From: Mustelus asterias
Lineage: Eukaryota
Direction of reading: 5' to 3'
Assembly: GCF_964213995.1 (NCBI RefSeq)
Contig: NC_135824.1
Span: 52,576,001-52,640,000 of the forward strand
Length of the DNA: 64,000 bases
In this document: positions 51,051 to 64,000 of the stretch, one piece after another
Numbering within the stretch: the first letter of the stretch is position 1
Layout: every line of letters begins with the position of its first letter
Translations under genes and position numbers: made by a program
Notes under the pieces: generated by a model
What the model was told of the DNA's origin: nothing
What the model saw: the letters and a program-made list of their open reading frames with translations, nothing else
The model's database searches: none

Positions 51051-51514
51051 ATGCATCTTTTGCTGGCTCTGATGATGCTGTTTCAATGTAAGGGAAGCAA
51101 TAACTATATTTAATAACATTCATTAATGATATTTTTCCTATATTTTTCATTCCGCCAATCTTTCCCCAAATCTCCTGGTTTACTGACCTTCTCCCTTTCG
51201 CTCTATCTTTCCCAGACGTGGACTTGCAAGTTATTCACCAGCTTCCCGTTGCTGTATCAAAATTTCATGGGGAAGCATTGGAACTGATGTGTACTGTGAA
51301 GGGGAGCAGTAGCACTCTCAACCTGTACTGGTACAGACAATACCCGAGGAAAGGGCTGCAGTTGATGTTTTACTCCATGCAAACAGACCGCGTGCTCTCA
51401 GAGGGGTCGAACCACGGTTTCAGCGCCAAGCGAGCAAGTAAATACGAGTTCAGTCTGGCGTCTCCTCACCTCAGGGTGAATCATTCGGCCGTGTATTACT
51501 GTGCCTGGAGTCTT
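51051..51514 (+). CDS. TRBV: TCR V segment (V10, CAWS family); exons 51051-51087 and 51216-51514
   Basis: Leader MHLLLALMMLFQ; LYWYRQ; AVYYCAWS; perfect 23-RSS. Confidence 0.92.
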
Positions 51515-51553
51515 CACAGTGACTCAGATAGATGGAACAGCTCAACAAAAACC
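51515..51553 (+). promoter_or_regulatory. 23-RSS of V10
   Basis: CACAGTG + 23 nt + ACAAAAACC. Confidence 0.97.
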
Positions 51554-52444
51554 TTAAAAATAGCAAGAAACAATTGTGTGAGATAAAACCAGCGAGTGTT
51601 CCGCCATAGTGGCGTTTAGTTTGCAGAGCGACCGCCTTTTTAAGAGAACATTAGACGCGTCAGAATGGAGAGTGAGAGATTAGGTATCGTGAACTGAATA
51701 ACATGCAAGGGAACATTTACAAGGATTACGTCTGAAATGAGTTATTATCTCTATCTGCAGTGATAAACAGACTCTGGCTCTTATGGCGATACTGTGCATT
51801 TAAGAAATGTATTTTAATAATGTTTCTCTGCAGAATGTTTCTAGCAGGCTCCAGAATTTTGTTGGCATCGTGTTCTCTGTAACAGGTACCCTTTATTGCT
51901 GCGAAAGCACTATGAATGATGGTATGATGATTGATATCATGTGTATTTTAATCTGAACTAATGCGATATTCTGGGGTTTTATTAATCCTTTGGGGATTGA
52001 TGAGTGGAGTTTGATTATAGATGATTGACCAGTCAGGTGATATGCCTTGGGACAGCTATTTGTTTAGAGAGTATTGCAAGATTTTTGTTTCGTTTCTCAG
52101 TTGCTGCCAGAAGCTAGTGGAAGAAGACGGTCTCTCTCTCTCTCTCTTTTTTCCAGAGGCTTTTTGGGAAGTTCCAGGACTGGGAAACCTCGGGGATTTT
52201 ATCCACTGCTCAGCGGGACCAATTCACAGCAGATGTTAACGGCTGAAGATCCAGCATCACGTGAGCATACTTGTTTCTGTGCCACGTCTGAAGAAGGGTG
52301 TGTCTGTGGGATGGTGTTTACTTTGGAGCAGCAGAGATAGTTAGCTATTTGGAGTTATACTATGTCCTGTTTAATACTTGTAATTGGTAAACGTTATGTT
52401 AAATCTTTCTGTTACATTTTAACTGCTTTCATAAATAACTGAAG

Positions 52445-54780: not shown

Positions 54781-55639
54781 TGTTACTCGGCAGTCCATTA
54801 ATCAACCTGAGTTTCGATGTTCCAAACGGTCTTTGAGACTGGGAGGAAGGTTTTCAACTCAGCAAGAATCTAGCTGGTGACAGAAATGTGCCATTCGGTA
54901 AACTCAGATGGATTAATCCTACTAAGTAGCATACAGAAAGGGAGAAGATCAGAATGACACAATAAAGAAGTCCTGAATAAAAATAACAATTGAACCTGCT
55001 AATTGAAAATGACGAGAACACTCCATGGTAACTGTAGGCGGGCATAAATTTTGTGGGTATTAGGATTAGAATATTTCTTAAACTATAACTCGATAAATGA
55101 AGCAAAACAGGACAGCATTCAGCCAGAAAGGTGTGAGTAAGGCAAACAGACATCTTTTAAACACAGAAACCAGGTTGACAAAGACTCAGGAACTCGCATC
55201 AATATGCTATTCAGAAAATATCTTGAGACCTGGAAAACTTCCTGACATCCCATCAAACACCCATTGTCCAAAGGAATTCAGAGACATAAAGCAATTATCA
55301 CACTCTTAAACCAAACTTTACATATTAAAACTCTAGACCAGAAAACCCATTAACGGGATAACTATAAAAGAAAACCATTTACACATCAAACTCCACACCC
55401 ACAAACCTATTGAAACAGGATGATTATATCAGGAAACCACTCACAAACCATTTACATATCAAAACAGATCGTTACTATAACTATACTCCGTTTTGGCAGG
55501 CAGGCAGAGTACTTTGCGGGACTGTCTTGTCTGTGTCCTGATTGTACCTCCGTCGACGTAAAAAACTATAATAAACTGTGCTGTTATCGATCTTGGCTCT
55601 GGGTGCGAGTGGTGTGGTATCTGTTCACTCGCGCTAACA
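54781..55639 (+). repeat. 5' LTR (3' end firm; 5' start tentative, TGTTA at 54781 or 54620)
   Basis: Ends TAACA just before the PBS; TATAAAA at 55363; AATAAA at 55570. Confidence 0.65.
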
Positions 55640-55641
55640 AT

Positions 55642-55659
55642 TGGGGGCTCGTCCGGGAT
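55642..55659 (+). promoter_or_regulatory. Primer binding site, tRNA-Pro
   Basis: TGGGGGCTCGTCCGGGAT, identical to the MLV-type Pro PBS; major splice donor candidate GTGAGT at 55697. Confidence 0.95.
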
Positions 55660-56540
55660 CGTGACCGCCGCTGGAACATCGCCTCTCAAACACTGGGTGA
55701 GTATCTTTACTCATTTAAAGTCCGCGGGAATTCCCAGTGCCAGCGGTGTTCCACGGCTGCCGCGATCTGAACTTGTGAACAGAGCCCGATCGAGAGCTGC
55801 ACAGCGGGGTAGGTTCTTCTTTGGGCGGGTGAGCGGGGTCGCGAATTGTAATTGATTGTGTACTGTTGCATTCCGTGTATCCCTGACAGCGGACCCGACC
55901 AGACATTAGCTGACCCAAAAGGTACCTAAGGAAGACAAGGGTTAAGTGGCCGGGAGGCCGGGAGGACGTCCAGGGTTAGGGCCAATGAACGCGGACTCAC
56001 GAAGTTCGGTTTAAGTCCGGGCGCTGCAAGTCGGGTAGGACCTCTGCAGGCGCGAAAGTCTGGGCCACTGGAAACAGATCCGCGAGGAGTCTGCTACATG
56101 TCCGGGCGCTACTAAGTCTGGAGCCTCTGTGAGTGCTTCGGGCACTACAAGCAGGAGACCTCTGGTAGCGCGAAAGAACGGCTACACGCCGGGGGAACTC
56201 CTACCTGCGGTCAATCCCACGCTTGTCCGCACCCAGGTCAGGGTGATTCCCGGGGAGATAGGGAAACGGCGAGCCTCTGTGGATTGATTTAGCGGTAGGA
56301 TTTGGTCAGGAAAGAGTGGCCCCCGGCCCCTGTAGTCGTGGTCAGAGCCCCCCCCCCTGTCTCTGTGAGCGGTGATCTCCCCGTTACATGCAGGACGGGC
56401 TCTGCGTGTTACTGCTGAAGGTTTAAAGGTACTGACAGTGGAAACACCAAACCAGGAACCCCAGGGATACCTACACAAGTATCTGTGGGAAGCACCAAAC
56501 CAGGATTAGTACACCACTGATCTTAGCTAAGAGATTCGAC

Positions 56541-57956
56541 ATGGATAGCATTGAGACCATTTTTGAATGGGGGCCGGAAGGGTCCCTCACCCGCTATCTA
56601 GCAGATAAAAACAAGAACCTAATTAAAAGCATGATTAAAACAGGGTGGAAACCCCAAGACCCCCTTGAGAGCCAACGGGAATGGTGGGCAACGGAAAAGA
56701 GGAACAAGGATGATAAGGCTTGGATCCTCATACTAAAGGCACACCTCACCCTAGCAGGGCGAGTCCATAAATACGTTCAGGATAAACAAGAAAAGGCTGA
56801 ACAGAAAAAGCATGCTGCTGTGATGGCTATTAACCCCGTGTTGCCGGCACTGACCGACTTCTCCCGTGAAGCCCCATACGAGGAATGTCCCGATTGGGAG
56901 TGCTTAATAGACGAGACAAGTCCTCGGTGCCCAACAGGGGGGAGTCCCCCGGTAACCACCGATCCCCCAAACGCCAAAGCAGCACCTCTTAAGATCGAAT
57001 GTATCCCAGGGGGACAAGGGAGAGACGGGCGAGGAAGGCAGGCCCAAATTAAAATGACTTATGTGTCACTCTCGCCAGGGGACACTATGAAATTACTAGA
57101 AAAGCTCCCAACCCTGCAGCCCAGGCACAGTAACGCAATTTTTTGGCAAAAGATGAAAGAGATGCAACTGTGCCACAACTTACACAACCGAGATATAGCA
57201 GGGTTAGTAAGAGCCAAGATGCCCGAGAATCACTGGGCTCGGCTCCGGGCAGAACACCAGAATGGGACTTGGTGTGCAGACCTAGACGGGAGCCGCCGGG
57301 AGCAGGAACAGGCTCTGACAGGCTTTAAAAACGATATCATCCTGACCATGGGGGAGGTCCCCGTGAGTTGGAGTGTAATAGTAGGAGTAACGCAGAAAAA
57401 GGAGGAAGGGGCTCAGGAATACGGGCGACGAAAATTCGATGCCTTTGTAGCCCACGGAGGAATGCCAGATGCAGATAGACAGAACCCGGCATTCCTCCAG
57501 TTATATAGGGATGGGCTGAGCCCAGCACACCAAGCTATCCTAAAGACAGGATTGGTAAACTTTAACACCTTCGATGAATTAGAAAACTGGGCTGTCACTG
57601 TAGACAACCAGCAAGGGAAAACACAGGGCGCCAGAGCAGGGATATCAGCGGTAGGAACTGAAGGAGGAAATTGCTACAGGTGCGGGGAATTAGACCATTT
57701 CAAAAGGGAATGCCGAGCTATAATCCCGCACCCTCCTAATACATGTAATAAGTGCGGCAGAATCGGACACACCGAATCTACCTGCAAAGACAGAAGGATC
57801 CCAAGGAGAAAGGGAGCGCCCCCGAAGAGACTGGAGAAAACCCCGGCAAGCGCCCCAGATATAAGGGAGAATGAGGTGGTTTCGGACCCAGCGCACCTCA
57901 GCCACCAGCAGCTGCTGGACATTATACAAACCTTGGCGGCACAAAAATCTGCATGA
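56541..57956 (+). CDS. gag: Gag polyprotein, 471 aa
   Basis: MHR-like VTQKKEEGAQEYGRR; two CCHC knuckles, CYRCGELDHFKREC and CNKCGRIGHTESTC; ends TGA. Confidence 0.92.
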   Translation: MDSIETIFEWGPEGSLTRYLADKNKNLIKSMIKTGWKPQDPLESQREWWATEKRNKDDKAWILILKAHLTLAGRVHKYVQDKQEKAEQKKHAAVMAINPVLPALTDFSREAPYEECPDWECLIDETSPRCPTGGSPPVTTDPPNAKAAPLKIECIPGGQGRDGRGRQAQIKMTYVSLSPGDTMKLLEKLPTLQPRHSNAIFWQKMKEMQLCHNLHNRDIAGLVRAKMPENHWARLRAEHQNGTWCADLDGSRREQEQALTGFKNDIILTMGEVPVSWSVIVGVTQKKEEGAQEYGRRKFDAFVAHGGMPDADRQNPAFLQLYRDGLSPAHQAILKTGLVNFNTFDELENWAVTVDNQQGKTQGARAGISAVGTEGGNCYRCGELDHFKRECRAIIPHPPNTCNKCGRIGHTESTCKDRRIPRRKGAPPKRLEKTPASAPDIRENEVVSDPAHLSHQQLLDIIQTLAAQKSA

Positions 57957-60900
57957 GTGGCATCGGCCCCCGCCCCGGGAACGGACCCCCGTATCTGGGT
58001 GAATGCATCGTTAGGGGGCCGGCGATGCAAAATATTAATAGATACGGGGGCTTCGATATCCCTCACCAACATGGCACTACCCACCACCCACCGTTCCATA
58101 GTAGTAGTAGGAATAGGGGGGGATAGGACTATAGCATATCAGAGCGAAGCAGTGTTACTTGAGGTAGAGGGGATCATACTCCCCGTACACTTCTGGGTGG
58201 GCCCAAATGAAGAAGGGACAATTTTGGGAATAGACCTCCTGGGAGAGTTAGGAGCAGTGGTGGACGCTTTCAATAAGCGCCTGCTGTGGACGGCAAGGAA
58301 AGAACACAAGAGCGGGATCCAAGGATACTGGGTCCCTAATAAGAACGTAGCAGCCATAGGCATGGGGGCTCCGGCTCCGACGGCCCGAGACTGGAAGAAG
58401 GAGGGACTAGTGGGACTCTTATGTCAAGCACTACCCCGGGTCTGGGCTACAGGCAAGCAAGACTGCGGTCTCGTCACAATCCTTCCTTTACAAATACAAG
58501 GACCAGCCCATGCCCCTCATAAACAATATCCCATAAAACCCGAGGCGTTACAGGCAACCGAAACAATCGTCCAGGCTTTGGTTAAACGGGGCATCCTGAG
58601 ACCCACCGTGTCCCACACAAATTCCCCGATGTGGCCCGTCCGTAAGCCAGACGGGAACTACCGACTAACCATCGACTATACCGCCCTGAATAAGGTCACC
58701 CCAAAGGAACACCCTATCGTTGCGAGCCCGGCCACTATATTTAACGGACTGCGACCTGAATATTGTATCTTCTCCGTGCTAGACATAGCAAACGGATTCT
58801 GGTCAATTCCACTCCACCCAGACTCCCAGGAGAAGTTTGCCTTCACCTGTGGAGGTAGACAGTACACCTGGACCCGTCTCCCCCAGGGATTCCACAATAG
58901 CCCCAACATATTCCACCGGGTTATGAGCAAAGCCCTCGAAAATTGTAACTTATCCCCCTATGAGAGCGCTTTTCTCCAATATGTGGATGACATCTTGATC
59001 GCCTCCACTAACCCGACGGGGCATTTGGGAGCCCTGTCAGTAATCCTGCGGGGCTTACAAACAGCAGGATTTAAGGTTAACCCAACCAAAGCACAACTCG
59101 CAAAACCAGAGGTCCGATATCTGGGGCATTACATAAGTCAGGGAAAGAAAACCCTTCCCACGGACCGAAAAACAGCAATTGCCAACATGACCCGTCCGAA
59201 CACAGTTAGGGGGGTGCGTAGGGTAATGGGACTCTTTAATTACTGTCGGAATTTCATCGATCAGTTTGCATCCATAGCAGAACCTATCCAGCGATTGGTA
59301 AAAGGGGGGAGGCCGGGGGCAGAAATCATTGAATGGGGACCCGAACAAGAAACAGCATACTCCCACCTGAAATCAGAATTATTAGCGGCCCCAGCCTTAT
59401 GCCTGCCCAACATAGCGAAACCGTTCCATCTTTTTTATAATGCGGAGGACGGATTCTATAGCTCCGTTGTGACTCAAGAAAGTGGGGGCACCATGAGACC
59501 TGTAGCATATTATTCGGTGCGGCAGTCCCCGATAGCCAAAGGACTACACAAATGTGTGGCAGCCCTGGACTGTGCCGCATGGGCAGTCAGGGTGTGCGAA
59601 CCCATTACTATGTTAGGACAGATCATCCTGCACACAAAACATACAATAGTAGAATTATTAAACACAGGTCGACTCCGAACTGTTTCAGATGCTCGAAGGG
59701 CAACTTGGGAGGCAGTGCTCCTTCCTCAGGACCAATCTATTAAAATCGTACGAGATACCGGAAGAAACCCAGCAGAGGGGTTCCTTCCAGACGGCAGTCC
59801 ACATCACTGTCCGATTAACCCAGACATGGATACAGAGGATGGGATTAGTGATCAGCCACTGGAGAACCCCGATATAATACTATACGTAGACGGGTCCCGA
59901 AGGCAGGTGGAGGGACAGTACCGCACAGGATGGGCAGTGGTAGATCAGGAAGGAACACTAATAGCAAAGGGCACCATGGGGGGGGAGACCTCTGCTCAAG
60001 TGGCCGAGCTTATAGCATTAACAAAGGCCCTTAGCGCAGGAAGGGACAAAAGGGTAAACATATACACGGACAGTCAATATGCGTTCGGGGTGGTTCACGA
60101 CTATATGATAGCATGGAATAGGCGCGGATTCATTACCGCAGCGGGGGGACACATAAAACATGAAAATATAATTCGAGACCTGGCCACAGCATCCAGACTA
60201 CCCTCAGAAGCAGCCGTAATTAAAATAAAAGCCCATCAAAAGACAAGGACTGTAGAGCAGAAGGGGAACCAACTAGCAGATGCCGCTGCTAAAGCTGCAG
60301 CAGGGGAAGCCCTCCCACAGATAGCTGCCATCACCTCTTCCCCCATGGAAGAGATGGATGTTCATAAACTACAGGGTAGCGCTGACCCAGACGAGGTGGC
60401 GCGGTGGAAACAGACCGGGGCGTCCTTAGACGAAGATGGTATATGGAGGAAAGGACATCAAGTAGTCGCCCCCTCATTCATACAGGCGGAACTACTTCGA
60501 CTCCACCACGAACCAAACCACTCCGGACGGGATGGGACCCTAGCTCGTTTATCAGGAGATTGGTGGTGGCCAGGGATGGGGCGGGATGTAGCTAAGCACT
60601 GCCAAAGATGCATCATATGCGCACAGCATAACCCTGGCCGGCCCCTGAAGGTTAAACTAGCAAACCAACCCAGACCAAAGGGACCTTGGGAAAACCTCCA
60701 AATTGACTTCATCGGCCCTCTACCCACCAGTCGTGGGAAGAAGTACTGCCTGGTCCTCATTGACCAGTTCACCCGATGGGTAGAAGCCTTCCCAACCCGG
60801 GATTGCGGGGCAACCACTGTAGCCCACATCTTAGCATATGAGATAATACCCAGATGGGGAGTCCCGTTACAACTGGACTCCGACCAGGGGACACACTTCA

Positions 60901-61538
60901 CAGGCAAGGTAATGAAACACGCATGTAAAACCTTAGGGATCCGACAGCGGTTCCATATACCATACCACCCCCAGAGTGCTGGAATGGTAGAGAGAATGAA
61001 TCGCACCCTCAAGAACACGATAGCAAAAACTATCGCAGAAACAGGTCAGGGGTGGGTAGATGTCCTTCCCTGTATCCTGATGCGCCTACGGGCCACCCCA
61101 GGTCGAACCATAGGGCTCACCCCGTTCGAACTAATGACCGGGAGAGCAATGCGACTCCCCGAAAACATCGCCGTGGGAGGGGAAGAAATGACACCCCTCC
61201 GAGACAAGCTCAAACGATATGTGCAACACTTAGATTCACAACTCCGAGACCTGCACCACACAGCCAGGGACCAGCAAGCCATTAGAGACCAGGCTAAAAA
61301 GGAAAATGTCAGTCATACCCCCACCCTCCCTCGAGTAGGGGATAGGGTTTTGATTCGGATTGCCCCAGACCGACCCGGGTTTGCACCGAAATGGATGGGA
61401 CCCCACGAGGTTATCCTTACCAGCGATACATGTGCGTGTGTCGATGTGAAAGGAAAAGGCCGATGGAAACATTGGTCGCAATTAAAATCCTATCACCACG
61501 GGGAAAGAGGACAGAGCAGACTGACTGAAAGGACATAG
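57957..61538 (+). CDS. pol: Pol (PR-RT-RNase H-IN), in frame with gag after a single TGA
   Basis: LIDTGAS; LPQGFHNSP; YVDD; YVDGS..SAQVAEL..YTDSQY..GNQLAD; HHCC; DDE integrase; WMGPH. Confidence 0.97.
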   Translation: MASAPAPGTDPRIWVNASLGGRRCKILIDTGASISLTNMALPTTHRSIVVVGIGGDRTIAYQSEAVLLEVEGIILPVHFWVGPNEEGTILGIDLLGELGAVVDAFNKRLLWTARKEHKSGIQGYWVPNKNVAAIGMGAPAPTARDWKKEGLVGLLCQALPRVWATGKQDCGLVTILPLQIQGPAHAPHKQYPIKPEALQATETIVQALVKRGILRPTVSHTNSPMWPVRKPDGNYRLTIDYTALNKVTPKEHPIVASPATIFNGLRPEYCIFSVLDIANGFWSIPLHPDSQEKFAFTCGGRQYTWTRLPQGFHNSPNIFHRVMSKALENCNLSPYESAFLQYVDDILIASTNPTGHLGALSVILRGLQTAGFKVNPTKAQLAKPEVRYLGHYISQGKKTLPTDRKTAIANMTRPNTVRGVRRVMGLFNYCRNFIDQFASIAEPIQRLVKGGRPGAEIIEWGPEQETAYSHLKSELLAAPALCLPNIAKPFHLFYNAEDGFYSSVVTQESGGTMRPVAYYSVRQSPIAKGLHKCVAALDCAAWAVRVCEPITMLGQIILHTKHTIVELLNTGRLRTVSDARRATWEAVLLPQDQSIKIVRDTGRNPAEGFLPDGSPHHCPINPDMDTEDGISDQPLENPDIILYVDGSRRQVEGQYRTGWAVVDQEGTLIAKGTMGGETSAQVAELIALTKALSAGRDKRVNIYTDSQYAFGVVHDYMIAWNRRGFITAAGGHIKHENIIRDLATASRLPSEAAVIKIKAHQKTRTVEQKGNQLADAAAKAAAGEALPQIAAITSSPMEEMDVHKLQGSADPDEVARWKQTGASLDEDGIWRKGHQVVAPSFIQAELLRLHHEPNHSGRDGTLARLSGDWWWPGMGRDVAKHCQRCIICAQHNPGRPLKVKLANQPRPKGPWENLQIDFIGPLPTSRGKKYCLVLIDQFTRWVEAFPTRDCGATTVAHILAYEIIPRWGVPLQLDSDQGTHFTGKVMKHACKTLGIRQRFHIPYHPQSAGMVERMNRTLKNTIAKTIAETGQGWVDVLPCILMRLRATPGRTIGLTPFELMTGRAMRLPENIAVGGEEMTPLRDKLKRYVQHLDSQLRDLHHTARDQQAIRDQAKKENVSHTPTLPRVGDRVLIRIAPDRPGFAPKWMGPHEVILTSDTCACVDVKGKGRWKHWSQLKSYHHGERGQSRLTERT

Positions 61539-61712
61539 GATGCTCCGTCCACTCCACGTATTGGCCCTTAACCATCTTTGTCCTTACAGCGGAAATCGAA
61601 ATAACAACCTTTATTTTCCAACACTAAAGGAACTATATGCCAACCGAGGCATGAATGTATATATGTAGATAGAAATAAGAATAAGATAAGTAAGACAAGT
61701 TCATCACCTAAT

Positions 61713-63881
61713 ATGAACCTAACGACTGGCGGCCACCAGGTTTTATATATCCTCCCCCAACCCCTCTCCAGAACCATGTGGACCACTTGGAGGATGATCC
61801 TCGCGGCGACCTTCCTGACGAGTGTGGCACCCGAAGAACACCCCATCTACCCGCGATTCCACGGGGTAGCCTTCAACACATCCGAGGCACTATGTGTGCC
61901 AGCTGGACCGGACCCTATGAACAGTAGAACTTATCTTAACGCATGGCTACAAGTTTACCCGGGTATCAACGAGATCTGCTTCACTTGCACTTTAGAAGGA
62001 CTCCGAACATGCATTCAACAGCGGGACCTCCAGAACAGAGACCAGTGCGTTTTTGGGACTCTCTGCGCCCTCCCCGACAACCCACAAGAGGCCCGACCAC
62101 AGGACACTTTGAATTCAAACATGGACATTTGCGGCTATTACGGACTTGTTGAGGCTCCCGCAGTCTCATTGTATGTATGTTTTGCACCGCTTCCAACGCG
62201 GGCCCCCACGACCACAAGGCCCGAAATCTTACCCTGTCCCTTGCAAAGCAGGGGACCGGAGGGAGGACTGGTGTTGTGGAACGAGGGGGAAATTGTGTAC
62301 GACAACGTAAAACATGAGGTGGTACCTGTCCTGATCGACATTTCAGGAATCCAGGTACCCAGGCATTGCTCAGAACAGGTACAGAACTTGTATCAGATGT
62401 TAGAGAGAGAGACCATAAAACGGGCCATTGACGCAATGGGGGCCACACACTACAGGGGAAACATAAACACCAACACGTACCGAAGCAAACGGGGTATTAT
62501 CAATGATATGCTCACAGGGCTGAATACAGGAGACACAATGATTAACTCCATTGACATCCAGGGCCTCAACAGTAAAATTGAACAGCTGAAAGGGGTAATG
62601 AAAAACATATTACAGCGGTCATTAGACCAGCAGGCGGAACAAGCATTCTTAGGGGAAGCGGGCGCCCATATCCAACTAGATGGGATTGCAGTGTTAGAAG
62701 CACATGCCCGAACTATCAATCGCCTCATAGACAGGGAAAGGGAAGACACTGCCCGGGTACAACAGGGACAGTTATGCCATGCATATGGTCAGTGGATGGT
62801 GGCACAAATACGACACAATTTGGACCAGGTACACAGGGGGGAAGTGCCCGATTGGATCGACAGCGCCCAACTAGCGCAACTCGCAGATCAGAAGGGGGTG
62901 CTGGATGACCGGACCCTGAAGGGGATGACACGAGTATATCCAGTAATCCCCGACTGCGAGGTTAGTGAGGGCACCGGGATAGGAATGGTTCTGCTAATTC
63001 CAACGGTCACACAGGACGCTGGACCATTCCCCATCTTCCGAATTGAAAATATTGGTGTTGTTAGGGGCAATGCTTCCCTCCGCTACCACATAACCGAAAA
63101 CATGGCCATCTCCAAACATGGCATAATGTCCAGTGTTTCTCTCGCAGGGTGCAAGCAGAGGGGAGAGGTCACCATCTGTCCTCACCCACTGAGACAAGGA
63201 GAGGCAGCAGAATGTGGGTTTAACCGAACACAGGACTGCACCTTAGAGATTATACCCGTAGACCCACATTTCGCCCGGGCAGGATACGGGGGGCGGGGTA
63301 GATACTGTGTAGCCACCACACGTACATCATTCACATATAACGGATTAACATGCCCAATCCCCAACCCTAACTTCTGTTTTACCCCTCGCAAGCCAGTCAC
63401 TATAGGTCAAGCTCACATCACCAATATTCGAAATAGGCAGACCATAGCCTTTAATGCCACAGACCCCCTAAAAGACAACCTAAGAGACTACCAAGAACCC
63501 GAGCAAGCCCCCATCCCACACCTGACCGAAGTCCTAAGGGAGCTCCGACTTAAAGTAGGACACTCCGTCCGATTATACCACCGGTTACAGTCACACATCA
63601 AAACCTTGGAACAAGATACCGAGACGGCGTTACGAAGTCAAACATGGGTACAGAAGGTGTGGGACTGGGGTCTAAATGTAAACATCCACCCCTGGGTCCG
63701 AATTACATCGCACACACTGGTGGTCATCCAACTCATCTTAGCCCTTTCCTGGGGATTGGCTACATGTTATACCTACCGCCAGCGGAAGAGAATGAAAGCA
63801 CATAAGAACTTAGTTAGAACAATTGGTATGATGGGGCAGGTAGCCAAGCGGGATGATTACTCCCGCCTACACATGATTTGA
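61713..63881 (+). CDS. env: Envelope glycoprotein, 722 aa (probable start 61713 or 61776)
   Basis: Signal-like MWTTWRMILAATFLTSVA; furin site RSKR (62481-62492); heptad repeats; C-terminal TM helix; splice acceptor CTTTGTCCTTACAG ending at 61589. Confidence 0.9.
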   Translation: MNLTTGGHQVLYILPQPLSRTMWTTWRMILAATFLTSVAPEEHPIYPRFHGVAFNTSEALCVPAGPDPMNSRTYLNAWLQVYPGINEICFTCTLEGLRTCIQQRDLQNRDQCVFGTLCALPDNPQEARPQDTLNSNMDICGYYGLVEAPAVSLYVCFAPLPTRAPTTTRPEILPCPLQSRGPEGGLVLWNEGEIVYDNVKHEVVPVLIDISGIQVPRHCSEQVQNLYQMLERETIKRAIDAMGATHYRGNINTNTYRSKRGIINDMLTGLNTGDTMINSIDIQGLNSKIEQLKGVMKNILQRSLDQQAEQAFLGEAGAHIQLDGIAVLEAHARTINRLIDREREDTARVQQGQLCHAYGQWMVAQIRHNLDQVHRGEVPDWIDSAQLAQLADQKGVLDDRTLKGMTRVYPVIPDCEVSEGTGIGMVLLIPTVTQDAGPFPIFRIENIGVVRGNASLRYHITENMAISKHGIMSSVSLAGCKQRGEVTICPHPLRQGEAAECGFNRTQDCTLEIIPVDPHFARAGYGGRGRYCVATTRTSFTYNGLTCPIPNPNFCFTPRKPVTIGQAHITNIRNRQTIAFNATDPLKDNLRDYQEPEQAPIPHLTEVLRELRLKVGHSVRLYHRLQSHIKTLEQDTETALRSQTWVQKVWDWGLNVNIHPWVRITSHTLVVIQLILALSWGLATCYTYRQRKRMKAHKNLVRTIGMMGQVAKRDDYSRLHMI

Positions 63882-64000
63882 CAAACTCCGGGACTCCCCT
63901 AAACTGTACGACTGCAGCGTACGGAGGCAGGAAGCACCGGACACAAAATATAATAAAGGGGAGAAAGATCGGTTAGAAAAGTGAAAAGGAAATAAACAAC

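Follow-up and report, generated by a model that had tools for sequence, protein, structure and literature searches.

How is Pol made from a retrovirus whose gag and pol share one reading frame and are separated by a stop codon? The question is raised by an endogenous retrovirus (ERV) of the shark Mustelus asterias, which lies in a window of 64,000 nucleotides (assembly GCF_964213995.1, contig NC_135824.1, forward-strand positions 52,576,001 to 52,640,000; all coordinates below are positions in this window). The element is a complete provirus of ~9.6 kb with long terminal repeats (LTRs), a target-site duplication (TSD), a primer-binding site, gag, pol and env, and an in-frame UGA stands between gag and pol. 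We think it likely that Pol is made by programmed readthrough of this UGA and that a 7-bp helix located 8 nt after the stop stimulates the event. The features of the junction are as follows.

57954..57956, + strand: in-frame UGA between gag and pol, with A at −1 and G at +4
57957..57964, + strand: 8-nt spacer, of which 57960–57964 can pair with 58024–58028 in free RNA
57965..57971, + strand: 5′ arm (+9 to +15 after the stop) of S1, the conserved 7-bp helix
57974..57999, + strand: inner hairpin within the 42-nt loop, varying between subfamilies and lineage-specific
58004..58010, + strand: 5′ arm of the alternative helix S2, with seven Watson-Crick pairs to 58023–58029; it crosses S1, and the outer helix is its competitor
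58014..58020, + strand: 3′ arm of S1, falling on the codons for the protease Gly-Gly, −27 to −21 relative to the Asp codon
58023..58029, + strand: 3′ arm common to the outer helix and S2

The gag frame ends with GCA TGA at 57951–57956 and pol continues in the same frame. As an earlier note on this DNA had stated, no ATG precedes the protease DTG motif; the DTG aspartate is codon 29 of pol (58041–58043) and the first in-frame methionine is codon 39, ten codons later. That note also considered that TGA might be a private mutation, with TAG or a sense codon in sibling copies, and neither is found. TGA is present in all 114 young copies retrieved with a 26-nt flank pattern that permits any codon at this position (a TGA-only pattern returns the same 114) and in 27/27 copies of an older subfamily (30 loci were fetched, the other three being young copies). 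Three related ERV families in the same genome, referred to as families B, C and D, carry TGA in 70 of 73 aligned copies: 12 of 13 in one family (one has TAA, and 2 of its 15 loci were unaligned), and 30/30 and 28/30 in the other two, for each of which 30 of 40 matches were fetched. A private mutation is ruled out by the presence of TGA in the young copies, the older subfamily and the three related families, and judging from these copies we take the gag–pol stop to be real and programmed.

The stop lies 28–29 codons before DTG in the shark families, and two teleost-type records (L047 and L049) and the snakehead retrovirus (SnRV) record (L127) have TAG at the equivalent site, 30–31 codons before DTG; all seven lineage representatives have A at −1. 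The stop context is UGAGUG in the window and UGA-C in most copies of families B and D. The A at −1 creates an AUG overlapping the stop of gag (A-UGA), which starts a short open reading frame in another frame, closing at 58126; the overlap recurs in the majority of family B, C and D copies. When the window is compared with the 27 older copies, the median ratio of nonsynonymous to synonymous differences (pN/pS) is 0.17 for pol and 0.25 for gag. By this measure pol is under purifying selection, and because the ratio in pol is this low we conclude that the pol frame beyond the stop has undergone translation. Since TGA is fixed, pol is under purifying selection and there is no AUG before DTG, readthrough is very probably the route to Pol. 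The earlier note regarded an opal codon here as atypical, a view that finds no support for fish retroviruses, and the UGA itself is not new: it was reported earlier at gag–pol of SSSV (salmon swim bladder sarcoma virus), the zebrafish ERV (ZFERV) and the cane toad RMERV (PMC13517186, sec. 4.1.2), and an epsilon-like family in the same genome also carries it, a gamma-like family there having UAG in a context like that of MLV.

The long stem-loop that the earlier note drew downstream of the stop has its coordinates right throughout (GCATC at 57960–57964, GGCCCCC at 57965–57971, GGGGGCC at 58014–58020 and GATGC at 58024–58028), and it coincides with the predicted minimum free energy (MFE) fold of the junction, at −35.6 kcal/mol. 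Its 7-bp core, S1, keeps its register across lineages, but the outer GCATC/GATGC helix, lying in a spacer that would be covered by a ribosome at the stop, keeps none, and the inner hairpin is not the same even in the two subfamilies. Pairs were counted by a script from two anchors, the stop codon and the Asp codon, using one native copy per lineage, since a MAFFT alignment of the eight junctions was not anchored at the stop. Over the seven lineages, which include the UAG-using teleost ERVs and SnRV, pairing holds in 46 of the 49 S1 cells; a synonymous null with the codon usage of the element has a mean of 27.6 and reaches 46 in 0 of 20000 trials, and when the window and SnRV are left out the count is 32/35, again reached in 0/20000. 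Control registers shifted from S1 give at most 34/49. Two compensatory double changes are seen, both replacing C-G by U-A, one at pair 5 (L047 and L049) and the other at pair 6 (SnRV), and +9 is the best 5′ partner in five of the seven lineages. The length of the S1 loop varies by 0–9 nt (28–31 codons) while the 5′ arm stays at +9, a constancy that ties this arm to the stop and not to the protease.

Several further measures single out the junction. Fourfold sites that differ between subfamilies number 1/18 in the interval +1 to +75 as compared to 67/258 in the pol stretch, and a perfect 7-bp partner with a loop of 30–60 nt is present at only 22 of 5020 gag–pol positions. The junction folds more stably than a synonymous-codon null (z −2.5, 3/300), and only 2 of 239 sliding 84-nt windows of gag–pol fold as well, both overlapping the junction. 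From these comparisons we are rather confident that S1 is real and selected, and we consider it reasonably likely that it stimulates readthrough.

We suggest the following mechanism. Most ribosomes would stop at the UGA and release Gag. A ribosome with UGA in its A site would have its mRNA channel filled by the 8-nt spacer, placing S1 at the channel entrance, the position of the pseudoknot in murine leukemia virus (MLV) and of the stem in Venezuelan equine encephalitis virus (VEEV), where it may delay termination. A near-cognate tRNA would then place Arg, Cys or Trp at the stop a few percent of the time to give Gag-Pol, and leakiness may be raised further by the A at −1. The parts of a 2026 review that deal with these points give Arg, Cys and Trp as the usual insertions at UGA and 2–10% as the range of measured viral readthrough, and describe the preference for A at −1 as inconsistent across datasets (PMC13517186). 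The signal appears indifferent to the identity of the stop codon, because relatives with the same helix use UAG.

A number of observations weigh against this proposal. UGA-G is not among the leaky contexts given in the relevant part of the review, where type II is UGACGG or UGACUA, and the same source describes downstream stems as dispensable in Plautia stali intestine virus (PSIV) and of little effect in chikungunya virus (CHIKV; PMC13517186); the gag-UGA-pol junction of Tca2 was not sufficient by itself to bring about readthrough, according to the account cited (PMC2194720). The records of walleye dermal sarcoma virus (WDSV) and of SSSV type lack the helix (3/7 pairs each), so retroviral readthrough need not depend on S1. 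Against dinucleotide shuffles the MFE of the junction does not reach significance (z −1.23, 19/200), and S1 is part of the MFE fold only for the window, the older subfamily, family C and SnRV, being missing from that of families B and D, L047 and L049. Family D has just 5/7 S1 pairs (3–5 across 20 copies). An arm-swap covariation test for S1 is not significant (p 0.09–0.12), because G-tracts pair with any pyrimidine run; the compensatory changes that the earlier note suggested seeking in other copies are present in S1, but covariation by this test is not significant. The seven lineages are few and related, so the null overstates their independence, and another 75-nt bin is also without synonymous changes (0/11). 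What stands of the opal readthrough signal with a stem that the note proposed is a programmed UGA followed by a downstream stem, of which the 7-bp core is conserved.

A second helix, S2, was overlooked in the earlier note. It encloses the G-tract and pairs perfectly over 7 bp in the window, and because it crosses S1 a pseudoknot or a switch is possible. The active element might accordingly be a pseudoknot or a two-state structure in which S1 acts together with S2 or alternates with it, an arrangement compatible with UGA readthrough stimulated by S1; in the switch version, a ribosome covering the spacer would free 58023–58029 and S2 would form around the G-tract. Same-register pairing of S2 is found in 34/49 cells across the seven lineages (null 25.0, 3/20000), or 27/42 cells without the window (73/20000); family B and L049 show double changes, and a hairpin around the S2 codons is the MFE fold in families B and D, L047 and L049. 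Blocking +1 to +8 leaves S1 in place (P 0.94), and blocking +1 to +9 flips the fold to S2 (P 0.96). We note that S2 was found post hoc, is absent from family C (3/7) and SnRV (2/7), and gives an arm-swap p of 0.05–0.08, and that the 2-nt linker on the 3′ side between S1 and S2 is too short for a full H-type pseudoknot. MLV likewise has competing spacer-paired and active forms, as the review describes them (PMC13517186). We regard such an S1–S2 element as possible, at well under even odds. Readthrough could also occur with the helix serving another end, such as packaging, export, or RNA stability against nonsense-mediated decay, or with the helix arising as a by-product of protein constraints, the protease Gly-Gly on one side and a motif like a protease cleavage site on the other. 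The codons after the stop do resemble probable cleavage motifs of the polyprotein (ISAV in gag; VAAI and IAAI in pol), the G-tract tolerates many partners in the swap test, and the absence of the helix from WDSV and the SSSV-type record would suit a role apart from readthrough. This explanation seems unlikely, however, as the synonymous nulls fix the amino acids and are still exceeded by S1, and the 5′ arm sits exactly at +9 while the loop varies.

Routes to Pol that bypass readthrough include a spliced mRNA as in foamy viruses, an internal promoter, reinitiation, or editing of the UGA. The provirus does splice, as the env joint described below indicates, the A-UGA overlap offers an AUG at the stop, and Tca2 provides a case in which a junction sequence can conceal a promoter, as reported in the text cited (PMC2194720). 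We nonetheless consider these routes very unlikely: no in-frame AUG precedes the catalytic Asp, the overlapping AUG opens a different frame, none of families B, C and D shares the GUG immediately after the stop, there is no slippery heptamer in 57851–58040, and the Pol tree sets the element apart from foamy viruses. No joint into the 5′ end of pol was found in the contigs of seven sequencing runs, of which only one (X18) is RNA-like and is thin over the junction, so that the result does not count against either a spliced pol mRNA or editing. Recoding of the UGA as selenocysteine we judge extremely improbable. A UGA with a nearby stem does resemble cellular selenocysteine-redefinition elements, but relatives with the same helix carry UAG, and neither a selenocysteine insertion sequence (SECIS) nor any other Rfam family matches in 54800–64000 apart from one chance match at E 1.2.

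We compared the junction with known readthrough systems. Record L127 is taken as SnRV, and its stop context, UAGGGC, matches that given in the review (PMC13517186). SnRV has the same layout, with an in-frame stop, an 8-nt spacer, a perfect 7-bp helix from +9 to the same protease codons, A at −1 and one compensatory pair in S1; it differs in having UAG rather than UGA, in lacking S2, and in its place in the Pol tree, where it is not a sister but sits on a long branch with unstarred support. A genome-wide pseudoknot search reports none after the SnRV and WDSV gag stops in the part of that study cited (PMC3835772). The structure starts 8 nt after the stop in MLV as well, where the pseudoknot begins at the same offset (PMC13517186, Table 1), and in both systems the protease diglycine G-tract serves as the 3′ arm of a helix of 7 bp, 27–21 nt before the Asp codon; the review notes that the 3′ side of MLV stem 2 encodes the diglycine (PMC13517186). 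The partners differ: the diglycine arm pairs with +16 to +25 (stem 2) in gammaretroviruses, which have a separate stem 1 at +9, whereas in the shark element it pairs with +9 to +15. A 6–7 pair partner at +16 to +25 for this same 3′ arm is found in 9 of 11 gamma-like rows. MLV further differs in its UAG stop and its purine-rich 8-nt spacer with G1 and G5, a feature described in the review (PMC13517186); the shark element has UGA and G1, with C at position 5, and does not have the MLV-type arrangement of an H-type pseudoknot whose stem 1 sits at +9 and whose stem 2 covers the diglycine.

Alphaviruses such as VEEV and Sindbis virus (SINV) and the tobraviruses share with the shark junction a UGA, an 8–9 nt spacer, and a conserved basal stem with a less conserved loop; the stem of VEEV begins at the same offset, and tobraviruses also have A before the stop, according to the passages cited (PMC3159437). 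Alphaviruses differ in having UGA-CGG or UGA-CUA as compared to UGA-G here (UGA-C in families B and D), and stems of 10–12 bp with loops of ~100–150 nt as compared to a 7-bp core and a 42-nt loop. For SSSV, ZFERV and RMERV readthrough was inferred rather than measured, as the review presents it (PMC13517186). The SSSV-type record (L325, hexamer UGAAGA) is without the +9 helix, and together with WDSV (L312) and five other epsilon-like junctions it has no more than 3/7 pairs at +9; for this epsilon and gamma comparison 24 loci were chosen, two of which gave no junction. By analogy, the shark junction would work like an alphavirus-type UGA with a basal stem, and its position relates it to the MLV signal; it is a member of neither family.

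Two other shark junctions came to light in these comparisons. One shark ERV family (L233–L260) has an MLV-like junction with UAG and the MLV 8-nt spacer followed by a strong hairpin; the hosts given for viruses of the clade Jin/gamma are limited to mammals, reptiles and birds in the part of the survey cited (PMC8922424). In another family (L238, L251, L256 and L231) the junction is UGA-CUG/CUA and the stem-loop that follows it is significant (synonymous null 1/300); this retrovirus family thereby has a type II context like that of alphaviruses.

A full-text literature search that did not reach the primary SnRV, SSSV and ZFERV papers, the 2025 pseudoknot survey or supplements found no description of an S1-type stem at these junctions. 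The conserved helix shared with SnRV appears to be new. Scans of viral contigs with the window Pol alone and with alignment A3 gave no matches.

The remainder of the provirus is organized as follows.

55028..55032, + strand: 5′ copy of the 5-bp TSD; the second copy follows the 3′ LTR past the window end
55033..55639, + strand: 5′ LTR (TG...CA); the 3′ LTR starts just past the window end
55642..55659, + strand: primer-binding site, position computed, which we take to be of tRNA-Pro type
55808..55810, + strand: major splice donor, with the exon end at 55808 and the intron starting GT; spliced to the env acceptor, 61771/61772
56541..57956, + strand: gag from its first in-frame ATG, with two CCHC boxes and a TGA end; the frame is open from 56436
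57957..61538, + strand: pol frame encoding protease, reverse transcriptase (RT), RNase H and integrase (Pfam RVP, RVT_1, RNase_H and rve)
61776..63881, + strand: env, from a spliced mRNA; no Pfam family

The pol frame is 1193 codons from stop to stop. The env mRNA is represented by one contig of run X18 that joins 55808 to 61772 with a GT..AG joint. About 240 nt separate the pol stop from the env ATG (61539–61775), with the env frame open from 61605, and ~150 nt lie between env and the 3′ LTR (from 63882). One of the gag CCHC boxes is a Pfam zf-CCHC match and the other was recognized by eye; Pfam finds zf-CCHC alone in gag, without Gag_p30, and nothing in env at E 0.1, and env has no matches to PDB sequences at E 1. 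A predicted protein of Mustelus asterias shares 99% identity with Env, and all nine homologues are from sharks. As a lead only, language-model features of env resemble the F proteins of paramyxoviruses and baculoviruses (Fusion_gly/Baculo_F, 0.91–0.92, below the recognition threshold). Lokiretroviruses are reported to have an F-like Env and an RT that is sister to all other retroviruses, whereas the shark element is not basal in the Pol tree, although the Pol trees contain no named lokiretrovirus.

In a 21-row Pol tree (LG+G4) the element groups with shark and teleost ERVs (support 89/90; 88 in a quick tree) and branches outside the class I (gamma/epsilon) clade, which has support of 100/99; it is also apart from foamy viruses. 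SnRV falls outside the shark and teleost clade in both Pol trees, on a long branch with unstarred support. The element shares with class I a single frame for gag and pol interrupted by one stop, and an env expressed from a spliced mRNA, but Pfam finds no Gag_p30 and no gamma-type env domain. Foamy viruses and foamy-like ERVs (FLERVs) are without a Cys-His box in the description cited (PMC5210030), in contrast to the CCHC boxes of the shark element.

The 5′ and 3′ LTRs are identical (609/609, a count that includes 2 flanking bases), and the ERV is very young and recently integrated. The young family is numerous, with at least 114 copies, mostly having 4–17 mismatches per 3.3 kb; among 30 young copies fetched, the gag stretch is stop-free in 27 and the first 564 pol codons in 23. 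Near-identical element sequence is also present in sequencing runs assigned to several different organisms. Recent or ongoing germ-line invasion is suggested, with possible cross-species spread among sharks. Joints with short direct repeats at 56638–56933, 59303–59980 and 60144–60887, each seen in 2–3 runs, are probably internally deleted provirus variants. An immunoglobulin or T-cell receptor V-set segment (Pfam V-set) lies at 51104–51586, with an apparent recombination signal heptamer after it, recognized by eye; the provirus is ~3.5 kb from this segment, so it probably sits within an antigen-receptor locus.

What appears to be new at this locus is the conserved 7-bp helix, the opal codon alone being already known. 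The 2026 review describes readthrough outside the gammaretroviruses as unverified and its cis-elements as unclear (PMC13517186, sec. 4.1.2). The locus supplies a concrete, conserved candidate signal of ~65 nt, found in an exogenous fish retrovirus and in shark and teleost ERVs and associated with both UGA and UAG, which makes readthrough outside the gammaretroviruses testable with a short reporter cassette. As a tentative conjecture, the diglycine–pyrimidine helix could be an ancestral retroviral readthrough stimulator, present as a lone +9 stem in SnRV and the shark and teleost clade, converted to stem 2 in gammaretroviruses through a new stem 1, and lost in the epsilon-like viruses; in the shark element a ribosome-triggered S1/S2 switch or pseudoknot might also set the ratio of Gag to Gag-Pol whatever the stop. 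Given the shared 3′ arm, a simple stem may have been the starting point from which the MLV pseudoknot evolved.

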